Positions 2,302-13,930 of a DNA stretch of 64,000 bases are shown here, in pieces. The stretch spans positions 64,001 to 128,000 of the forward strand of contig CAVTET010000012.1 of NCBI GenBank assembly GCA_963733675.1. The letters are read 5' to 3'. The notes beneath the pieces are model-generated. The model was given only the letters and a program-made list of their open reading frames with translations, was not told the origin of the DNA and made no database searches. This stretch comes from an uncultured Methanosarcinaceae archaeon (GTDB taxonomy: Archaea; Halobacteriota; Methanosarcinia; Methanosarcinales; Methanosarcinaceae). Each line of letters opens with the position of its first letter. The stretch's first letter is position 1. The position numbers and the translations under genes were made by a program.

Positions 2302-3159
2302 GGTTATGTTGCAAAAATTCATAATAAGGATTCAATTGAATAACGAGAAAATCAATAGAACGATAATATGCTATCTAATTCCTTTAAGTGGAAACATTAT
2401 GAAGGAGAAATTATCCTATTAAATGTAAGGTGGTATTTAAAATATCCATTAAGCTATCGGAATTTAAAGGAAGTGATGATAGAAAGAGGAGTACAAGTTG
2501 ATCATACTACTCAAATGAGATGGGTGCATCACTGAGATCGAAAAGAAGGTACGTAGGTACTTAAAGCCAACCACCGACTCTTGGAGAATGGACGAAACCT
2601 ACATCAAGGTAAAGGGTGAATGGAAATATCTTTACAGAGCAGTTGATTCAACTGGAAGCACAGTTGATTTTATGCTAAGTGCAAAGCGTGATAGAACTGC
2701 TGCGAAACGTTTTTTTAAGAAAGCTTTGAGTTCTAATCATAATCAAATTCCAAAGGTAATAACTGTAGATAAAAATCTAGCTTATCCATCTGCAATAAGT
2801 GAACTCAAAAATGACAAAGTATTACCTAAAAACGTAAACCTTCGGCAAATCAAGTATTTGAATAATGTTGTTGAACAGGATCATAGATCTATAAAACGGA
2901 TAATTCGTCCAATGTTAGGCTTTCAGTCTTTTTGTACAGCTATCAAGACTTTAAAAGGAATTGAAATCATGCATATTATAAGAAAAGGACAGATTAATGC
3001 TCTAAATCGATGTGTTCTTTCTAAAGTAAATTTTATAAATAAGTTATTTGGAATAACTGCCTAAATTTAAATGTTAGCTGAGAAATATTTTGCATTTTTA
3101 TGTTTTTGCTGTTAAACTAAAGTTTTTACTTCAATAGTAGGATTTTTTGCAACAGAACC
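2302..3159 (+). mobile_element. IS6-family insertion sequence, copy 1 (divergent; transposase 2368-3064 frameshifted)
   Basis: TIRs GGTTATGTTGCAAA / TTTGCAACAGAACC; DETYIKVKG, TVDK, NNVVEQDHR DDE motifs; ~8-nt deletion near 2531 breaks the frame. Confidence 0.95.
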
Positions 3160-3282
3160 AGAAATGGAGAAATGCTAATAAGCAGTAGTGGCAAAAAGGC
3201 TTCCAAATTCAGTATAGATAAATCAAAGTTTAATTTCTGGTCCTTATTTGATAAAGAGTTTATCTTCCTGAAGGATGCCTGA
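3160..3282 (+). pseudogene. 3' end of an unknown gene (putative replication protein), truncated by IS6
   Basis: Reads ...LISSSGKKASKFSIDKSKFNFWSLFDKEFIFLKDA*; paralog at 9340-9454 differs mostly at synonymous positions (AGT/AGC, GAT/GAC, TCC/TCA, TTA/CTC, AAA/AAG, CTG/TTG). Confidence 0.7.
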
Positions 3283-3307
3283 TAAGATCACAAAGGCAAC
3301 TGATTAT

Positions 3308-3610
3308 TTTATTCCCATACTATTCTCATTTATCCCAAAATATTCCCGTTATATTCCCATTGAAACGTAATCCGTTGACATTTTGTTCCCAAAAACCCGA
3401 AAATGAAAGAAAGAAATAGAAAATTACACTTTTTGACATTCTCATATTTTGGATATTACTTTAAAAAATCATATATCATTTTTTTTATTTTGGGAACATA
3501 ATACCCTTTTTTATATGATTTTAAGTTCCTTGTTATTGTTTTTATATTATTTCTAATGGGAATATAATGGGAAAATAGCGGGACTAATCGGGAACTAATG
3601 GGAATATAAA
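3308..3610. repeat. Mirror-symmetric iteron-like array (origin-like), copy 1
   Basis: Five TTCCC-type units at ~9-11 bp spacing (3311-3360), inner inverted pair TGTTCCCAAAA/TTTTGGGAACA, AT-rich core, five inverted GGGA units (GGG at 3558, 3569, 3580, 3590, 3600). Confidence 0.8.
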
Positions 3611-4140
3611 TAACGGAGACATATTTGTAATAAGAAGTATATAGGAACGAACATTATAAAGCCTATGATATCTCATTTTCCATTTAAGATTGTGATTCAA
3701 CTTAATTAAGCCGATTGACAACAGGCCTTTTTTGTCTGTTAAATCTCAGAATGAAGATGTTCATAAATTTAAAATTATATTTCAGAAGAGCCAATTATTC
3801 CACTCGCGAAAAATATGCTTTAATAGTAGCCTTCACTAAGATTGATTGAGCAATTTTCAGTGGGCTGACTTTTATTTTATCAATTCTTTGAACTTATTTA
3901 ATCTCTCGAATGTCTCATCTTCAATCTTCTTCAATTAATTTCGCGATTAAGAGAAATCAAAGCAAATATTCCTATCAAGATACTCCAAAATGCACTGCCA
4001 ACCATGTCTGTACCCAAAAGATGTACCGTTTGCATTACTTTATTTTGTCATCGAGCACATAAATCACAACCAATGCGTCGTCGAAAGCCATCAACTACTT
4101 AGTTTTTTTAATTTAAATTCCCAGGCTGATCTCAAATGCT

Positions 4141-4220
4141 AAAAAATTGATCTTCAGCTGCAGGTGAAGAGAATCCTGTAGCCTGCCGAAAAGTCTACTG
4201 CAAGGTACGAAAGACCTATA
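4141..4220 (-). ncRNA. Candidate ~80-nt sRNA, copy 1
   Basis: Minus-strand BRE/TATA (GCAAAAAATATATA) ~24 nt upstream, hairpins AGGT..ACCT and GCTACAGG..CCTGCAGC, ends in oligo-T; paralog at 4599-4678. Confidence 0.55.
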
Positions 4221-4344
4221 AGAGATAAAAAGATTCAACTAATTATATATTTTTTGCATACATTCTAAATAAAAATATCAGAAACTGAAGAGTATAATAA
4301 TTGAGGTGATATCTCATCCCAAAATCCAAGTAAATACCCCTTCA

Positions 4345-4555
4345 TATTTATTTATATATTGTAAAAGTAATAAAAATATATGAAAAATATCTGAAGGGTA
4401 CTACCGTGCTGCAGGATTAATATAATCGGGATTCCGTTTTGGTCCGAAAAATGACTTATTCTGGAGTCGCTGATGAGACTTTTATTGACCGTCTATTCAT
4501 ATACTTATTGTCATAGTCAAAAAATGCCTAAAATCGCTCCACAATCAATCTTCCT
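4345..4555 (+). repeat. Conserved TATA + small leaderless ORF module, copy A (decayed)
   Basis: Homologous to 8266-8594 and 11726-11979 (AAAGTAATAAAAATATATGAAAAAT...ACCGTGCTGC...GAGACTTTTATTG); its 3' part recurs at ~10065-10105. Confidence 0.75.
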
Positions 4556-4598
4556 TAGTTTATTAGTTCCCACAGGCGGCCAGGTGGATTTAAAATTT

Positions 4599-4678
4599 AA
4601 AAAAAGTTAATCTTATGAGCTGCGGGGGAAATACTTACAGCCCAATGGAAAGTCTACTAGAAGGTGGGGAAACCTATA
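4599..4678 (-). ncRNA. Candidate ~80-nt sRNA, copy 2
   Basis: Same architecture as 4141-4220: TATA (CAAAAAGATATAT) ~25 nt upstream, TATAGGT..ACCT, shared AGTAGACTTT, GCTGT..GCAGC hairpin, T7 run. Confidence 0.55.
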
Positions 4679-4908
4679 AATTATGACTAAGTTTGATCTC
4701 TGATATATCTTTTTGATATAGTTGAAATAGCACCAAATTGAATTTATTAATATTAATTTGTTATTCGATTTTAAAACTTTTAATAGGCAAGTAATTTTTA
4801 TTAAAAAACAAATTTTTGAATTATTAATTTAAAAACTAAGTAAGTAATCTATACACTATAGTGTAAAGTAAATTCATATGGAAGCTAATTTTTATGGAAG
4901 TTGATACA

Positions 4909-5490
4909 ATGATTAAAAGTAATGCTCTAATACAGATAGGTTCACTAGAGCATTCAAAAGCAGCTGATGATTATGTAACAAATTTAATTAATATATTAAA
5001 TACCAGACGCACAAGTCGGAAAATTGATGAAGGCTAAGAGCTGGGAAATGTCAAATGTTAATCTTAAAACAATAACCGGGGAAGTATTTTCAAGTATCAC
5101 AAATAGTAGTTTGATAATAATTATATATTTTGATTCCAGAAATCAGGCTGAGAAAGGATTGATCACTTATATTGCAAATTTTACTTCTAAATGTAATTAT
5201 GAATCATATCATCCAGCTGGAAATAGTGACCTCAATTTTTTGACAACAGAATTATTGGATATCAATGGGCATCCCATCTACTCTGAACAGCTTACTCCAG
5301 ATTGCGTGATATCTTGTGTAGATTATAATAGTCGTAGGGTCTTCAGTGCAGATTATCCACCAAACTTATTTGATAATGCAAATCAGCCGTTGGTAAATTA
5401 TTCTGAAATTGCTCTGCAAAAATGCTAATCCCAAAGGGCTAAACTTTTTGGAGCTAATTTTAAAGGAGCTTATCTTAGGGATGTTTATCA
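4909..5490 (+). pseudogene. Hypothetical protein ending in pentapeptide-repeat remnants, frameshifted
   Basis: Consecutive ORF fragments; 3' end reads AKLFGAN..KGAYL (pentapeptide-repeat pattern). Confidence 0.4.
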
Positions 5491-6006: not shown

Positions 6007-6430
6007 TATTAATCCCTTGCTTACTTTGATATCCTTAAATCGAAAACGGATCTAAAGCCCAAATTAGATCCTATCCGAAATTTGTCTCTTACGCGTAGAA
6101 TAGTAAAAACCTAATAAACCTGTGATGTTTAGACAGTTGGGGATTTTCCATATATTTTTATTTCGCTACCTAACTAAAGAATAAAAAATCCTATTTAAAA
6201 ATCTAGGTAACTGTATATAACTTAGTTTATATTATTATCTAACAAATGAAATAAAGATAATATGTAAACCTAACAATTACTTCATTTTTCTTTATTATTT
6301 ATCAGTCCCGTAACATAATATTTTTCCCAGCTATTATAAAATCTGTAAATATGTCCAGATTCCGCAGACTTGACAGAGCCATTTCACGCTTGATCTTTTA
6401 AAGTTTTTCCATAGGTTTTTATTGTTTTGT

Positions 6431-7294
6431 CTAAAACAGTCTAAGCGAAAATTCTCCACCACTTTTGATAGTAAAGGCTGCCGCTCCTCTGTGCCCTCCT
6501 CCACCATATTTCTGCGCTATCTCAGCACAATCTATAGAGTCTGATCTAAGCGACACCTGGACCATATCATTCATCATCTGCCACATAACAGCTATATCAT
6601 ATTCTGGTTTTTGGTAAACATACTCTCCAATGTCGCTAGCATCGGTTGTAGTATTGATAAGTCGCGCTCTCAGTCCGTGAAAGTCGATATCTGTGCCCCT
6701 TTCGAATGCTTTCTCAATTTTAACTTTCCGGACATATGTGAGTGCATGCCCAACTCTCAGATAGAGTTCAACTTTTTCATTTTCATGATTACACGATGCC
6801 AACAAATCTTTCCAGTCTGCATCTTCAGGGGAATGAAGAAGAATTTGGCAAGCTCCAGTAAAAGCTGAAATTTCTTCTTTCTTGTCTCCGAATTGCCATA
6901 CGTCTCGCTTTGAAATGTACTCAACTGTTGTAGGAAGTGGGTGACCGCTTCTAAGATATTCCCATGTAAGTTGGGAAGCAGCTTTTGTGATATCCCGTTT
7001 TCCAAGAATGTTCAAACCCCACAATTCCTTATTTTCTTCCATTGCAGTCTTGTGGTGATCTATCCATATGAGTTTTTGTCCTGTTATTTCTGCAAGAGTT
7101 CCCATATCAGTAAACGTGAAATCAAGAACGTAGACTTCATCAGCTTCTTCTATTTCTTCTTTTTTCCATGTAGTGCCATTGTATTGCACCGCAATGCACC
7201 GTATCGGGTTGGTGGTGATGTCTTCCATCGACTCCCTGACCTGAGCTGCTGAGCACTGACCATCAAGATCATCGTGATAATATAGAACAATCAT
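6431..7294 (-). CDS. DHH/DHHA1 family phosphoesterase (NrnA-like)
   Basis: YHDDLDG, VLDF, WIDHH, SLRS, GGGGHRGAA motifs; ATG at 7294 with SD AAGGAG. Confidence 0.9.
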   Translation of the reverse strand: MIVLYYHDDLDGQCSAAQVRESMEDITTNPIRCIAVQYNGTTWKKEEIEEADEVYVLDFTFTDMGTLAEITGQKLIWIDHHKTAMEENKELWGLNILGKRDITKAASQLTWEYLRSGHPLPTTVEYISKRDVWQFGDKKEEISAFTGACQILLHSPEDADWKDLLASCNHENEKVELYLRVGHALTYVRKVKIEKAFERGTDIDFHGLRARLINTTTDASDIGEYVYQKPEYDIAVMWQMMNDMVQVSLRSDSIDCAEIAQKYGGGGHRGAAAFTIKSGGEFSLRLF

Positions 7295-8265
7295 TCTTTT
7301 ATACTCCTTTAGCGAATACCGCATATTAGACTCGCTGTATCCTAAAAATTCAGCCATTTTTATTAGCAGATTGAAGTTAATGCAAAAATCAATCGAATTT
7401 AAGGCATATTTCACGGCTGATTTTCTAAACGGTATTAGATCATTATCATAAAGCTCTTTGGCTTCTTCTTTTTGTTAGATTAATATTGATTTCTTCATCT
7501 TCTTTGATTACAAGAATATTTCACTTCATAGTACTTTAGTACTTTAAGAGAGAATTCGAATATTTTTCTCTTTTTTGAAGCCTATATATTGCATTTCAGA
7601 ACGTTTCTATGCAATATTTGCCCAAATATATTTAGAGTATCTTTGTGTTCTGACGCTTTTTTTGCAGGATTTATTGTAAAAAGAGTATGAATACTTTCTT
7701 TCAAAATGAAATTCCATCGGCTTTATTTAATTAACTAAGGTGATCTGGATGATATTGAATATCAAAAAGGTGATCTGTGAGCTGCTTGCGAAGGGGATGC
7801 ACACAGTTCGATCGGTTATTTAATTTAATTATATAGGAAAATTTATTAATTATAATTTGATTTAATTGAGTATATAATTTGTGAATATATTATACTAACT
7901 TAAACTCATTATTATTGCCATTACATGATTCTGATCTCACAGATTATAGCTTATCTTATATTATCTTATAAAAATAAAAATTAGTGTAACAATCTTACGA
8001 GTTGACCTACATATGTGAGCTTGACTAAGTGTGGGTGGAACTTCATGCCGTCTTATGCTTTTCAATTAGTATCAACAGCAAACATTTGTAAGTTTCTTGA
8101 TTAAATTAATTACTGATACTTACGTCTTTTATGGCTTTATTTACATAACATTTTTGTGGACCATAGGCAGTCATACTAAATTCATAAATTCCTAGAGTTT
8201 AAATCCAAAAACTTCAAATACATTTCCCGAGTTCTTAAAATCAAAGTAACTATATTCCATAACTT

Positions 8266-8594
8266 AATTTATATTATTCCAAAGTAATAAAAATATATAG
8301 AAAATGTCTTGAAGGCACTTACCGTGCTGCTGAATTTAGATAATGGGGAATTAATTTGGTCTAAAAACGACTTAACATGAGGCCACTAGTGAGAAGACTT
8401 TATTAGAAGTCTAATGTTAGGTTCATTATCATACTCAAACAATCGCATACTGCTCCTGAGAATGGCTTCTGCTTGATTTGATGTATATACCCTCGCTTCG
8501 ATATAGAACAAAAATAACTTAATATTAAATATAAGCTTAGCTAATATCAATCATAAAAAATAAAAACCGGTGTTCACAATTGCACGTCCATCAT
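8266..8594 (+). repeat. Conserved small-ORF module, copy B, ending in the first codons of the terminase-small-subunit-like gene
   Basis: Colinear with 11726-12047, including the AAAAACCGGTG..GCACGTCCATCA (ARPS) start. Confidence 0.8.
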
Positions 8595-8924: not shown

Positions 8925-9339
8925 GCAACACTCAAACCAATAATCCAAGTTCCGTCATATTGCAATTAAGCATTCTTTGGATGTGCGCTTAATAGGCTTA
9001 CTATTTTTGCCTCAATGTCCTACCTTTAACAATTTCTATATCTGATAGACCAACGAACTATTAAATATCGTTGAGCTATACTCATACTTAAGCCCATTAG
9101 CAATCAAATTCTAATCACTTGGATTTGTAGTTGTTTTTGGTCACCATAATTAAATAGATATAGAGTTACAACTAAATATTCATAACTCGGTAGAGCTGCT
9201 TTTAGGCAATTTATTGATACTCGTTCATCAACTTATACCCCCTACTCCAATGTCAAAGCAAAAAAGATCCAAACAACGTTGCGAAATAATATTTGCTTAG
9301 AACTATTCAGAATATTTATATAGACTGCAAGAAGGAAAG

Positions 9340-9960
9340 AGATCTCTTAATAAGCAGCAGTTGAAAGAAAGCTTCTAAATTCAGCATAGACAAATCAAAG
9401 TTTAATTACTGGTCACTCTTTGATAAGGAGTTTATCTTCTTGAAGGACGCCTGATCTATGCACAAAGGCAATTAATTCTTTTATTCCCCAATTTTCCCTT
9501 TTTTTCCAAAATATTCTCGTTTTTTTCCCATTGAAACGTAATCAGTTGGCATTTTGTTCCCAAAAACCCGAAAATGCAAGAAAGAAATAGAAAATTACAC
9601 TTTTTTGGACATTCTAATATTTCGGATATTACTTTAAAAAATCATATATCATTTTTTTATTTTGGGAACATAATTCCCTTTTTTTATATGATTTTAATTC
9701 CCTTGTTATTGTTTTTATATTATTTTTAATGGGAATATAATGGAAAAATAACTGGAATAATTGGGAACTATTGGGAATATAAATCACAGAAGACATACTT
9801 GTAATAAAAAAGGTACATGAACGAACAATTATGGAGCCGAAGATATCATATTTCATTATTTGTGATTGTGATTTAGCTTAATTAAGCAGATTGACAACAG
9901 GCTTTTTTTGTCTGTTAAATCTCAGAATGAAGATGCTCATAAATTTAAAATTATATTTCA
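9340..9960 (+). repeat. Second copy of the gene-3'-end + iteron-array block (paralog of ~3170-3784)
   Basis: Colinear ~620-bp duplication; FSIDKSKFNYWSLFDKEFIFLKDA* ends 9454; arrays at 9481-9530 and 9729-9782. Confidence 0.9.
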
Positions 9961-10921: not shown

Positions 10922-11725
10922 CAGTCATTCCTCCAAATTTTTATAAATTAGTAATCAGAATTATTTAATGCATCAAAATGGACATCAGACTTCATAGTAG
11001 GCAAGACTCCCACATATCTAATGTAATCAATTACTGGATACATTTTCCCCATCTCCTAGATCCCTCTGAAATAAAATATCTCAAATTCCGTGCTTGTTAG
11101 GTTATTACAATTTAGGTTTGCGTTGAATTTTGATACCCACAATTCCTGTAGATCCCTTATAGGCACCGTCATATACAATAGAATATACACGATTGAACCA
11201 AGAAATCTATAACTTATGCACTTAAGGACCAAAATCAAGCAACTTTTTAAACCAAAAACTGTCTAAATTTGCTCGTTTTAAGTTACAGTACACAATTGCT
11301 TCTTATTTATTTTAAATTAATTATACAAAAAATAATTTCTAAATAAAAATTACTTCCCCATAAAATGTTTTAAAACCAAAAAACAATTTTATATTAATTA
11401 TATTTTTATTCTACTCAGAGATCTTCACAAATTTAACACTGAGCTTTTATACATTGTACCTAAAAATCTGTAAATTCTGAGTGACTCTGTATCGATTTAC
11501 TTAATCACAAAAAAAGATGTAGAGTCAACAGCTTTACTGATAAAAATTCTGTTTCTATTTTGGAATCTTAATATAAATCTCTATATAGGATTTTCTTTCC
11601 AATCATCTTGTGGATAATATTAGCCAAAATCTTAAAGCTCTGGCAATTACCTTAGAACATTTCAATTCCTATAGCCTAAACGATGGCTTCTTATCTAATA
11701 GGATGAAATAAATTTTTATAAAACT

Positions 11726-11979
11726 TAATTTATATACATTTAAAGTAATTAAAATATATGAAAAATTTCTCGAAGACACTTACCGTACAACCACATTTAA
11801 AACATGGGGAATTAAATTGGTCGAAAAACGGCTTAAATGAGCTTACTAGTGAGACTTTTATTGAAAGTTTAATAGATTATTCATTAAAACGGTAAAAAAC
11901 GGCTTGTAGCGCCCGAGAATGGCTCATTGTTGATTTGACGTGTATAAACCCCGCTCCTATGCCGAACAAAACGAACTAA
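11726..11979 (+). pseudogene. Small leaderless ORF module, copy C (73 codons with one internal TAA)
   Basis: TTTATATA box then ATG at 11758: MKNFSKTLTVQPHLKHGELNWSKNGLNELTSETFIESLIDYSLKR*KTACSAREWLIVDLTCINPAPMPNKTN. Confidence 0.55.
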
Positions 11980-12595: not shown

Positions 12596-13930
12596 TTACT
12601 TTTCATTTTTAAGCATGGCTTCCTTTAACTTTGAAATTTCATCAAGCTCCGTTTGTAATTCGTTCTTCATTCCCCATATTCTTTCAAGGTCTGAATATTT
12701 CATATAGTCGGCTTTGATAGATTCGGTGGCTTTCATTTTTTCTATCTCCGCCTTGAGTTCATGCAACTCTACTCTTTCGTCTCTTCTTTCCTGTGTCATA
12801 ATGTCAGTACTTCGCTTGTATGCATCCTTGTCTCCCTTCATTTGAACGAAAGCAGGGTGCTCAGTAGGATCTATTGACTTTTCAATAGTTAGATATGAAA
12901 TATATTTTGTATACTCTTCTTTCAACTTCTCAGGGGACGCTCTGTAATATGCTTCATGTGTCGCATCCAACTACTGGTGCCCGAATAAGAAATCCACAAA
13001 AAATATACTGGCATGTTCATTGAGTAACGTAGTATTAAAGAATCTCCTCATATTATGTGATCTGTTGACATTATATTCCCCACTCTCTGAACTGGTCTGA
13101 GCCTCTTCATTCAGTCTTTGATAAATTGATATTATCGTTTTTTTACCTAGCTTTCTGAGCTCTTCTTGATCTTTCGTTTTCTCAGATGTTAGATATTCGG
13201 AAGGCACAATCCTTGTGACAAACAGATATCCATCTTTAGTAGTCATATGTTGTTTTTCGAGTCGTTGCTCTTTTATTTTGCCATTATAATTAGGTTCCCT
13301 ATTTCGCCAATTAAGATAGTCCTGAATTGCTTTTGAAGCTTCTGGAGACAAAAAAGTATAGAAATTCATAGTTTTTCTTTTTTCTAAGCAGATGTAGCGT
13401 TGTTATGCCTGTTGTTGGGTCACAACCATCTACGAAATCACTAACGTTAAGATTAGAGATGTCCACAGCACTTAATCCACTACTAACGCCCACTAACACA
13501 AGAGCACGTTCAAGGGGATCACAAACATTAAGAATTTTTCTTATATCATCCTTAGTTGGTATTTTCTTTCGTTTTAATTCTGGTCTTGCATTTGTTGTAC
13601 CTTTTGGGAGTACTGGCAACTGAATATTATACAATCTCTAAAACGAGCATACTCCAGTCATTCTGCTTTTAATAGTCAGTGGAGCAAGATCTTTTCTCTC
13701 TAATTGTTCTCTAAACTCTCGGAGATAATGGTTATATTTCTCTCACGCATCAAGAGTCCAGCCCGAATCTCTGTTTCAGCTTCTTCTATAAGCTGTAATG
13801 GCGTTTTATGGGTGAACTCAGTAAATTGCTGCATTGATTGCAGATACATCTTTCTTGTATCATCAGCCGCTTTGATTCCGGATAACCAATCCTTAATTAT
13901 TTTGTCGGTTTTTAACTCTTTAACTTTCAT
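12596..13930 (-). pseudogene. Tyrosine recombinase/integrase, fragmented
   Basis: Four colinear fragments; SSGLSAVDISNL, HNMRRFF, GH and AYY catalytic regions; two frameshifts and in-frame TAG at 12971-12973. Confidence 0.9.

Follow-up and report, generated by a model that had tools for sequence, protein, structure and literature searches.

What is the function of a mirror-symmetric array of short, helically phased repeats that lies directly behind the remains of a gene in a methanogen genome? The array is located in a stretch of 64,000 nucleotides (the window) from an uncultured Methanosarcinaceae archaeon, namely positions 64,001–128,000 of contig CAVTET010000012.1 in the assembly GCA_963733675.1, and the gene, rep, encodes in its intact form the protein Rep. 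A preliminary description of this DNA had proposed that the repeats are iterons which load Rep or a helicase from both sides of an unwinding element. This proposal turned out to be the best-supported reading, and the support is comparative: it comes from the domains of Rep, from the linkage of array and gene in relatives, from the conserved phasing, and from the covariation of the repeat units with the protein. Going by these sequence comparisons, we consider it probable that the array is the replication origin of mobile elements of Methanosarcina, i.e., of small integrase-bearing islands and of tailed viruses, and that it works like the origin of the Staphylococcus aureus pathogenicity islands (SaPIs). 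For most plasmids and viruses of archaea no origin has been mapped.

Anatomy and phasing of the array

Direct reading and a repeat search confirmed the arrangement described before, that is, five TTCCC-like units, an inner inverted pair, an AT-rich core, and five inverted units. The features of the first copy and of the second copy in the window are as follows:

3307–3609, left arm on the + strand and right arm on the − strand: repeat array, copy 1 (direct reading and repeat search)
3307–3361, + strand: left iteron array of copy 1, five TTCCC-like units
3361–3373, + strand: box TTGAAACGTAATC, past the left array and before the inner unit of copy 1; AAACG.TATC in other clades
3384–3394, + strand: inner left unit TGTTCCCAAAA, 32 bp past the last left unit
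3395–3487, no strand: AT-rich core, candidate unwinding element (GC content and nearest-neighbour free energy, dG)
3488–3498, − strand: inner right unit, reading TTTTGGGAACA on the + strand, the exact inverse of TGTTCCCAAAA
3499–3554, no strand: second AT-rich spacer with two degenerate direct units, TACCC and GTTCC, and the invariant stretch GTTATTGTTTTTATATTATTT
3555–3609, − strand: right iteron array of copy 1, five inverted units
3615–3626, + strand: right boundary box, ACGGAGACATAT in copy 1 and GAAGACA or GGTAGACA in relatives
3627–3784, + strand: tail of the repeated unit, copy 1, common to copy 2 and to loci of the genomes G019 and G067
9480–9531, + strand: left iteron array of copy 2, first unit at 9484
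9555–9565 and 9660–9670, no strand: inner inverted pair and AT-rich core of copy 2 (exact 11-mer search)
9728–9782, − strand: right iteron array of copy 2, inverted units
9783–9960, + strand: boundary box and tail of the repeated unit, copy 2 (repeat comparison)

The cores of the left-arm units of copy 1 begin at 3314, 3325, 3334, 3345, and 3356 (CCC, CTC, CCC, CCC, and CCC) with spacings of 11, 9, 11, and 11 bp, and the GGG cores of the right arm begin at 3558, 3569, 3580, 3590, and 3600 with spacings of 11, 11, 10, and 10 bp. In either arm the mean period is 10.5 bp per unit. Single spacings range from 9 to 11 bp (about 10–11 bp in the earlier description); five left units are present as had been stated, but two of them (TTCTC and ATCCC) are degenerate in copy 1. 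The layout had also been reported for positions 9481–9782, and copy 2 does possess both arms (9480–9782) and the inner pair. The inner 11-mer occurs exactly four times, twice per array and in opposite orientations. The repeat search delineated 55-nt arms (3307–3361 and 3555–3609) that are 73% complementary as well as inner arms (3380–3406 and 3476–3502). The pattern TTCCCN{5,6}TTCCC has five matches in the window, all within the two arrays, as compared to 0.19 expected, and none of 100 shuffles reached five matches; thus, a chance origin of the arrays is excluded.

The core is low in GC and in calculated duplex stability. The 40-mers at 3430–3569 have a GC content of 0.12–0.28 and a dG of −39 to −45 kcal/mol, and those at 3430–3499 a GC content of 0.12–0.17 and a dG of −39.3 to −41.9 kcal/mol, the mean of all 40-mers of the window being −48.5 and the 95th percentile −41.6 kcal/mol.

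By aligning 11 closely related arrays we could see which further elements are shared. The box TTGAAACGTAATC is nearly invariant in this alignment and is present in divergent loci too. The two spacer units that read TACCC and GTTCC in copy 1 are TTCCC in most other copies. The right boundary box corresponds to conserved alignment columns and is seen in the loci L028, L030, L031, L033, and L058. Within the close family the left arm has spacings of 10–11, about 10 + 10, and 11 bp, followed by 32 bp to the inner unit; a gap of 66–67 bp separates the inner unit from the right arm, which continues with 11, 11, 10, and 10 bp. At L028, whose Rep is 57% identical, the corresponding series is 11, 10, 11, 11, and 31 bp and then 79, 11, 10, and 10 bp. 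Taking such divergent loci together with the close family, the left-arm series is 11, 9–10, 10–11, and 11 bp with 31–32 bp to the inner unit. The phasing, whose conservation had been named as a check on the proposal, is thus kept in homologues.

The unit itself is exchanged between clades: TTCCC, TTCCCC, T(A/C)CCC/CGCCC, TTCTCAC, TTTACC, TTTTTAC, TATTCC, TCCTGA, TTGCC, and ATCAC are found. The recognition-helix region of the winged helix of Rep (see below) varies in parallel with the unit sequence. The boxes are similar between clades, AAACG.TATC past the left arm and GGTAGACA or GAAGACA past the right arm. The sequence of the core differs between clades while the layout of the array persists.

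The rep gene and its linkage to the array

Upstream of both window arrays lies the 3′ end of the same gene:

3163–3282, + strand: rep 3′ remnant of copy 1, ending with ...LISSSGKKASKFSIDKSKFNFWSLFDKEFIFLKDA, stop codon at 3280–3282
9339–9454, + strand: rep 3′ remnant of copy 2, stop codon at 9452–9454

The window arrays had been described as starting about 30 bp after the stop of a conserved gene, and this is correct, as the distance from the rep stop to the first unit is 28–29 bp not only in both window copies but in all five full copies of the genome and in the left-arm partial copy. The host assembly (3.92 Mb, 15 contigs, 92% complete) holds these five near-full copies, two in the window, one elsewhere on contig C12, and two on contig C3, together with one left-arm-only and one right-arm-only partial copy, so that the array is not just present twice as had been thought. 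The frame upstream of every full copy ends with ...KFSIDKSKFNFWSLFDKEFIFLKDA and the stop codon, i.e., the conserved gene is the same throughout, but the window contains only its 3′ remnants. In both window copies no more than the last 30–50 codons are left. The remnant of copy 1 comprises about 40 homologous codons; a tblastn search with P0004, a 570-aa form of Rep, matches it over residues 521–570 with 68% identity and with stops inside the match. Copy 2 has 29 open codons, copy c5 has 54, copy c4 has 157, and copy c3 is frameshifted into pieces of 338 and 167 aa. A protein search of the 92%-complete assembly gave only six broken pieces and no intact rep.

Inspected by eye, the layout follows the rep stop in 11 of 14 genus loci, in two of four viral contigs, and in two of six further distant loci, that is, in 15 of 24 distinct loci. 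For a systematic count we used a detector of phased, opposed unit chains which allows one mismatch and calls a region positive at a score of at least 8. It replaced an exact-5-mer detector that had missed degenerate arrays including copy 1, and it is still conservative, as its composition filter excludes AT-only units such as TTTTTAC. Of 92 tblastn-positive loci, 72 had a match that included the C-terminus and a downstream sequence of 400 bp or more, and these yielded 50 non-redundant regions of 460 bp. Half of them (25) were positive: all 18 at Rep identities of at least 79%, seven of 22 at 42–60%, and none of ten at 34% or below. Positives were found in two of 170 random low-GC segments of the host genome and in none of 150 shuffles. 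One of the 170 control segments scored 13, which is above every rep-linked array. The 15 regions missed at 42–60% identity comprise 11 with an array by eye, three ambiguous cases, and one, L032, with none. Combining both approaches for the 40 non-redundant relatives of at least 42% identity, the array is found downstream in 36 of them, three are ambiguous, and one has none. This bears out the expected linkage to the upstream gene. The 36 include L106, where the array begins about 350 bp past the rep stop.

The protein is recognised as a family only through its homologues, as scans of the host-genome rep fragments against Pfam, PHROGs, and NCBIfam gave nothing meaningful. The c3 fragment has 49 homologues, for which PF27228 is the precomputed Pfam family; two carry in addition PF09250 (Prim-Pol). 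Within the genus, a rep match at an E-value of 1e-10 or better is present in 23 of 59 genomes, and the intact frames measure 730–776 aa. Four of five full-length orthologues scanned have the PrimPol domain PF09250 at the N-terminus (E-values 1.2e-23 to 7e-13); the L053 protein had no match. For the middle part, the Walker A (GxSGSGKS), Walker B (FSDD), and SNSR motifs are invariant or nearly so in the Rep alignment. No Pfam family for the AAA+ part was matched among the fragments and orthologues scanned, and a sequence-profile search of the PDB with the Rep alignment returned only matches at the level of the Walker A motif and of a helix-turn-helix (E-values of 0.009 or worse). The fold was approached with an AlphaFold model of P0004 (31 aligned sequences; predicted local distance difference test score, pLDDT, 74.6). 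All matches listed by Foldseek for this model are MCM proteins (top E-value 3e-8), and VIA-align superimposes model residues 139–457 on the MCM structure 6mii_A with Z = 22.0 over 290 residues and a root mean square deviation of 4.9 Å. A winged helix at the C-terminus is indicated by the Pfam family HTH_24 (E-value 1.4e-4, residues 567–605 of the L052 protein), by the precomputed family PF13412 for P0030 and P0031, by a MarR-type PHROG match (E-value 2.6e-4), and by the model, which has three helices (helix-turn-helix) and a long beta-hairpin at residues 459–542. By motif and model, then, Rep is predicted to be a protein of three parts, with PrimPol at the N-terminus, an MCM-like ATPase of the AAA+ class in the middle, and a winged helix at the C-terminus. 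An architecture of PrimPol, AAA+, and winged helix has been described for primases of mobile elements, in which recognition of the origin is predicted to fall to the C-terminal winged helix (PMC5862659). A tblastn search of a phage collection with P0004 gave no match.

Intact modules occur in two types of element. In four intact islands a gene for a tyrosine integrase precedes rep by 1–3 kb in the same orientation, giving the order integrase, rep, array. The best bounded island, L056 (about 11 kb), spans from a tRNA-Leu gene to the integrase and has its array about 5 kb from either end. This tRNA-Leu is the only hint at an attachment (att) site in a tRNA scan of five loci, and a direct-repeat search of the intact island L053 revealed no convincing pair. 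Two contigs of IMG/VR (37.7 and 57.4 kb) carry the module downstream of a thymidylate synthase gene and 2.4–3.8 kb upstream of genes for the small and large terminase. The rep–array module thus appears, by gene content, to serve tailed viruses as well. On the L053 island a Pycsar-type pair (L053:16402–17948, − strand) is encoded about 4.4 kb past the array, with a PycTM effector (1.7e-12) and a nucleotide cyclase (5.8e-8); it may be defence cargo of this island.

The order of the features suggests how such an origin could be operated, and from it we infer binding by Rep, melting, and replication. The winged helix of Rep would read the pentanucleotide units. As these recur every 10.5 bp on average they would lie on one face of the DNA, and the arms point toward each other; with this geometry Rep subunits would collect along both arms and form two rings flanking the AT-rich core. 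The core would then melt, and the fused primase would start synthesis in both directions. It is possible, but we propose it tentatively, that this constitutes an undescribed class of archaeal bidirectional (theta-type) origins, in which a protein composed of PrimPol, MCM-like, and winged-helix domains reads its own phased pentanucleotide iterons and loads itself as two opposed rings, in a module common to small integrative elements and tailed viruses of Methanosarcina and with at least eight distinct specificities of unit and winged helix. If so, these specificities would be a natural set of orthogonal replicons, and the presence of the same architecture in the bacterial SaPIs would mean that it is either very old or a striking case of convergence.

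Several observations count against an origin function. The array is absent after the stop in nine of the 24 loci examined, namely in L032 (50% identity) and in eight relatives of 34% identity or less; the latter are mostly long forms (1036–1182 aa) with other genes following their stops. The covariation of units and winged helices is descriptive only, the sequences being related and hence not independent. No terminal overlap that would indicate a free circular form was seen in any of 20 whole metagenome or viral contigs. The AT-rich core is unremarkable among intergenic DNA here, the surrounding 2-kb windows having about 30% GC, and in the alignment of the close family its sequence is well conserved, which could reflect a promoter or another specific site and not a mere melting region. 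All rep copies of the host genome are broken; the genome is therefore silent on activity here, and the window arrays are relics and probably inert because of this. A decay of such arrays, on the other hand, speaks for the origin. The number of perfect unit cores is 8–11 of 12 beside long rep frames (mean 9.9, n = 7) and 6–11 of 12 beside frames of less than 300 aa (mean 8.4, n = 12), with nine in copy 1 and eight in copy 2, in a comparison that is small and uncorrected for relatedness, contains a few alignment shifts, and has the frame of L022 (intact, 756 aa) set by hand. The direction of this loss of unit cores fits a relaxed constraint after the loss of Rep. A selection of orphan arrays as decoys that titrate Rep was set aside as very improbable, since the lower number of perfect units beside broken rep argues for decay.

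Comparison with known origins and rival explanations

The closest parallel is found in bacteria. The origin of SaPIs has been characterised experimentally and is described as lying immediately downstream of rep, with 6–12 iterons divided equally between the two flanks of an AT-rich centre; no fewer than two per flank are oppositely oriented, and one hexamer is proposed to form per side (PMC9371898). According to the same source, the SaPI Rep is a self-loading hexameric helicase, either of superfamily 3 (SF3) or SF6/MCM-like (Rep2), whose C-terminal winged helix reads penta- or hexanucleotide iterons, and the primase is encoded upstream of rep or, as in SaPI5, fused to it (PMC9371898). The present array has 12 pentanucleotide units, 5 + 1 on the + strand and 1 + 5 on the − strand, around an AT-rich core with a GC content of 0.12–0.28 and begins 28 bp after the stop, and the predicted protein has a fused PrimPol, an MCM-like AAA+ core, and a winged helix at its C-terminus. 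As far as a sequence can show, all architectural features of the SaPI module are present here; the likeness is one of architecture and not claimed as a family by descent. In contrast to SaPIs, the array belongs to an archaeal host and is strictly phased at 10.5 bp, the boxes AAACG.TATC and GGTAGACA are added, and the module is also present in contigs of tailed viruses. Similarity in sequence to SaPI Reps was not detected, which refers to Pfam scans, where the AAA+ part matched no family, and not to a direct comparison with SaPI Rep or Cch. Because this architecture is already known from SaPI elements, the array is less new than had been assumed in the preliminary description; what is new is an archaeal variant tied to a Rep with PrimPol and MCM-like parts. 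Searches of full texts outside the subscription journals turned up neither a description of the array nor an origin ascribed to this family of Rep proteins.

The origins with origin recognition boxes (ORBs) that are served by Orc1/Cdc6 also have inverted repeats flanking an AT-rich unwinding element and an adjacent gene for an initiator with a winged helix. Here, on the contrary, the initiator would be helicase and primase as well, and there is no orc1/cdc6 gene nearby. The host genome has five orc1/cdc6 homologues above the NCBIfam cut-off, on contigs C4, C7, and C13 (one on the 50-kb contig C13) and none on the contig of the window. Next to the best orc1/cdc6 gene, as distinct from a mapped host origin, the repeats belong to the GRAAATCAAATTT type and not to TTCCC. 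The sequence TTCCCATTGAAAC at 3354–3366 loosely recalls what we take to be the ORB core. The array had been said not to resemble an ORB/Orc1 origin, and this holds: no orc1/cdc6 gene is close to it, and the repeats beside the best one appear to be of another type. The core origins of SV40 and of papillomaviruses have inverted penta- or hexanucleotide sites next to an AT-rich tract at which the initiator helicase forms a double hexamer. These are eukaryotic viruses with far fewer sites, and the DNA-binding domain of their initiators is N-terminal to the SF3 helicase.

Three further systems share part of the layout. The Cch2 helicase of the staphylococcal cassette chromosome mec (SCCmec) has short iterons just downstream of its gene that are bound by its C-terminal domain (PMC7581432). 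This origin differs in having only three direct AAGTG iterons, an SF3/D5-type helicase, and a separate polymerase–primase. The protein ORF904 of the Sulfolobus plasmid pRN1 likewise combines PrimPol, helicase, and winged helix, and the non-coding region 3′ of its gene is reported to be essential (PMC2777425). Its helicase is of superfamily 3, however, and the authors of the same paper state that they found no iterons 3′ of rep (PMC2777425). In the pME2001-type Methanothermobacter plasmid NC_014409.1 the large open reading frame (ORF) matches the AAA+ part of Rep with 24.7% identity over residues 165–424 (E-value 2e-6), and a non-coding region (L065 3265–3586) contains A-rich repeats with a 10-bp phase. 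They consist of A-tracts, are direct for the most part, and do not immediately follow the stop; they are a candidate for the origin of that plasmid. The whole pME2001-type plasmid serves as replicon of a shuttle vector (PMC8609365).

A replicon of this kind would be of practical use. The candidate is small, about 2.7 kb with one gene and an array of 330 bp, and intact copies exist in complete genomes of a genetically tractable genus. An intact rep with its array is found, for example, at G067:C15 8,221–11,300, and an orthologous module of G041 at L053 9,700–12,450. For the pC2A-derived Methanosarcina shuttle vector rolling-circle replication has been proposed (PMC9569500). The rep–array module could serve methanogen genetics as a second vector backbone, compatible with the present one, and the many unit variants would permit swaps of iterons between clades. 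A single polypeptide with an MCM-like motor may recognise the origin, load the helicase, and prime, which bears on the placement of MCM double hexamers. For annotation, orphan arrays of the rep-linked type mark decayed mobile elements.

Other functions have to be weighed against that of an origin. Phased repeats may serve as a partition (centromere-like) site, at which a small DNA-binding protein covers the repeats and links the element to a motor for segregation; ParR acts in this way on the phased 11-bp repeats of parC of plasmid R1. About 12 units phased by one turn, in two sets of five round a centre, do resemble some plasmid centromeres, and several small ORFs of no known function are found near rep in the intact islands. 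Yet the two sets are inverted and not direct, no gene of the ParA, ParM, or TubZ type was detected among 35 + 25 + 25 island and viral proteins, most of which lack any annotation, and the array stays with rep in islands and in tailed viruses that otherwise differ in gene content, its units covarying with Rep. Thus, we regard a partition site as unlikely. The same degree of doubt applies to an array of operators, i.e., sites for a repressor or activator, possibly Rep itself, that would control transcription from the AT-rich core. The strong conservation of the core in the close family, its TATA-like TTTATAT stretches, and a next gene that begins about 470 bp past the rep stop in L025–L027 speak for it. 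Twelve sites spaced by 10.5 bp in two opposed sets would be unusual for such a control region, however, and between clades it is the layout and not the core that is conserved, with different genes downstream in islands and viruses. Operator sites can coexist with an origin function.

The location 2.4–3.8 kb upstream of the terminase genes in the two viral contigs would suit a packaging (pac or cos) site recognised by the terminase. We consider this highly unlikely, as integrase islands without a detected terminase, L056 being the best bounded, carry the same module, and as the array begins within about 30 bp of the rep stop, with several ORFs lying between it and the terminase genes. Integrases also have recognition sites with several arm sites round a core (attP), and tyrosine integrases are encoded 1–3 kb from rep. 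Integration would split attP into attL and attR; the array, however, is unbroken in integrated copies and lies about 5 kb from both ends of L056, and it is therefore hardly conceivable that it is attP. Finally, the 55-nt arms with their 73% complementarity, the several copies in the genome, and the insertion sequence of the IS6 family beside copy 1 and near the partial copy p7 could point to a non-autonomous transposon akin to miniature inverted-repeat transposable elements (MITEs) or to a structured RNA or cruciform. The repeated unit exceeds the array, reaching from 3160/3176 (left end 3160–3178 among copies) to 3680/3784. The inverted arms are internal to this unit, which always includes the rep 3′ end, and the ends vary between copies, whose flanks are not common. 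Thus, the dispersal to unrelated loci that would mark a MITE was not seen, and every full copy carries a rep remnant. Against a hairpin, RNAalifold on the 11 arrays gave a covariation term of +0.98 with compensatory changes in one of 80 pairs, a result of low power as the arrays are close relatives; pairing is confined to the unit cores, and a hairpin would not need the iteration of units within an arm. An Rfam scan of the whole window at gathering thresholds had no match. We see very little probability in a transposon or a hairpin, and return to the origin as the preferred function of the array.

Surroundings of the window arrays and further repeats

Two features in the surroundings of the arrays are related to mobile DNA:

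2302–3160 (shorter variant to 3055), + strand: IS6-family insertion sequence, transposase ORF at 2588–3064
12596–13634, − strand: possible tyrosine integrase fragments (weak matches to Phage_integrase, 3.3e-4, and XerA, 1.7e-3, both below the cut-offs)

The transposase matches DDE_Tnp_IS240 of Pfam (6.6e-45) and transpos_IS6 of NCBIfam (1.4e-50), and the frame in the window spans only profile positions 72–202 of 202. The genome contains 114 full-length matches of this element (its own included) with 75–94% identity and 30 partial ones; five copies reach 3158–3164. The element adjoins and truncates rep of copy 1, and another one is found near the partial copy p7. The other neighbours of the window arrays are gatA/gatB and the genes for a DHH protein and for SodC. 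The region of the DHH gene (6236–7698) is 94% identical to the flank of the intact island in G067, which suggests a common integration neighbourhood.

The first 14 kb of the window have a low coding density, and about 2 kb (3065–5023) are devoid of ORFs of at least 60 aa on both strands. Another dispersed non-coding repeat family with many matches in the genome is found at 4121–4546, 8261–8375, and 11722–11836, one member lying 1.2 kb past copy c5. A fragment resembling the C-terminal part of a family-A DNA polymerase (...SVHDKLVFEC..., judged by eye) is located 1.3 kb past array c3 (L002:285–665, − strand), and a similar polymerase-like fragment follows immediately after the array of L045.

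A genome-wide scan revealed a second mirror-like phased array with the unit GAAGACA (L124, L125) at G000 C2:8478–8827, C13:4219–4568, and C13:46994–47343. It overlaps an ORF of 140 aa of no known family and may be a coding repeat; its neighbours are a UvrD-like protein, a beta-propeller protein, and PAP2, and there is no adjacent rep-like gene. In sequence the unit is similar to the GAAGACA box that borders the rep-linked arrays on the right.

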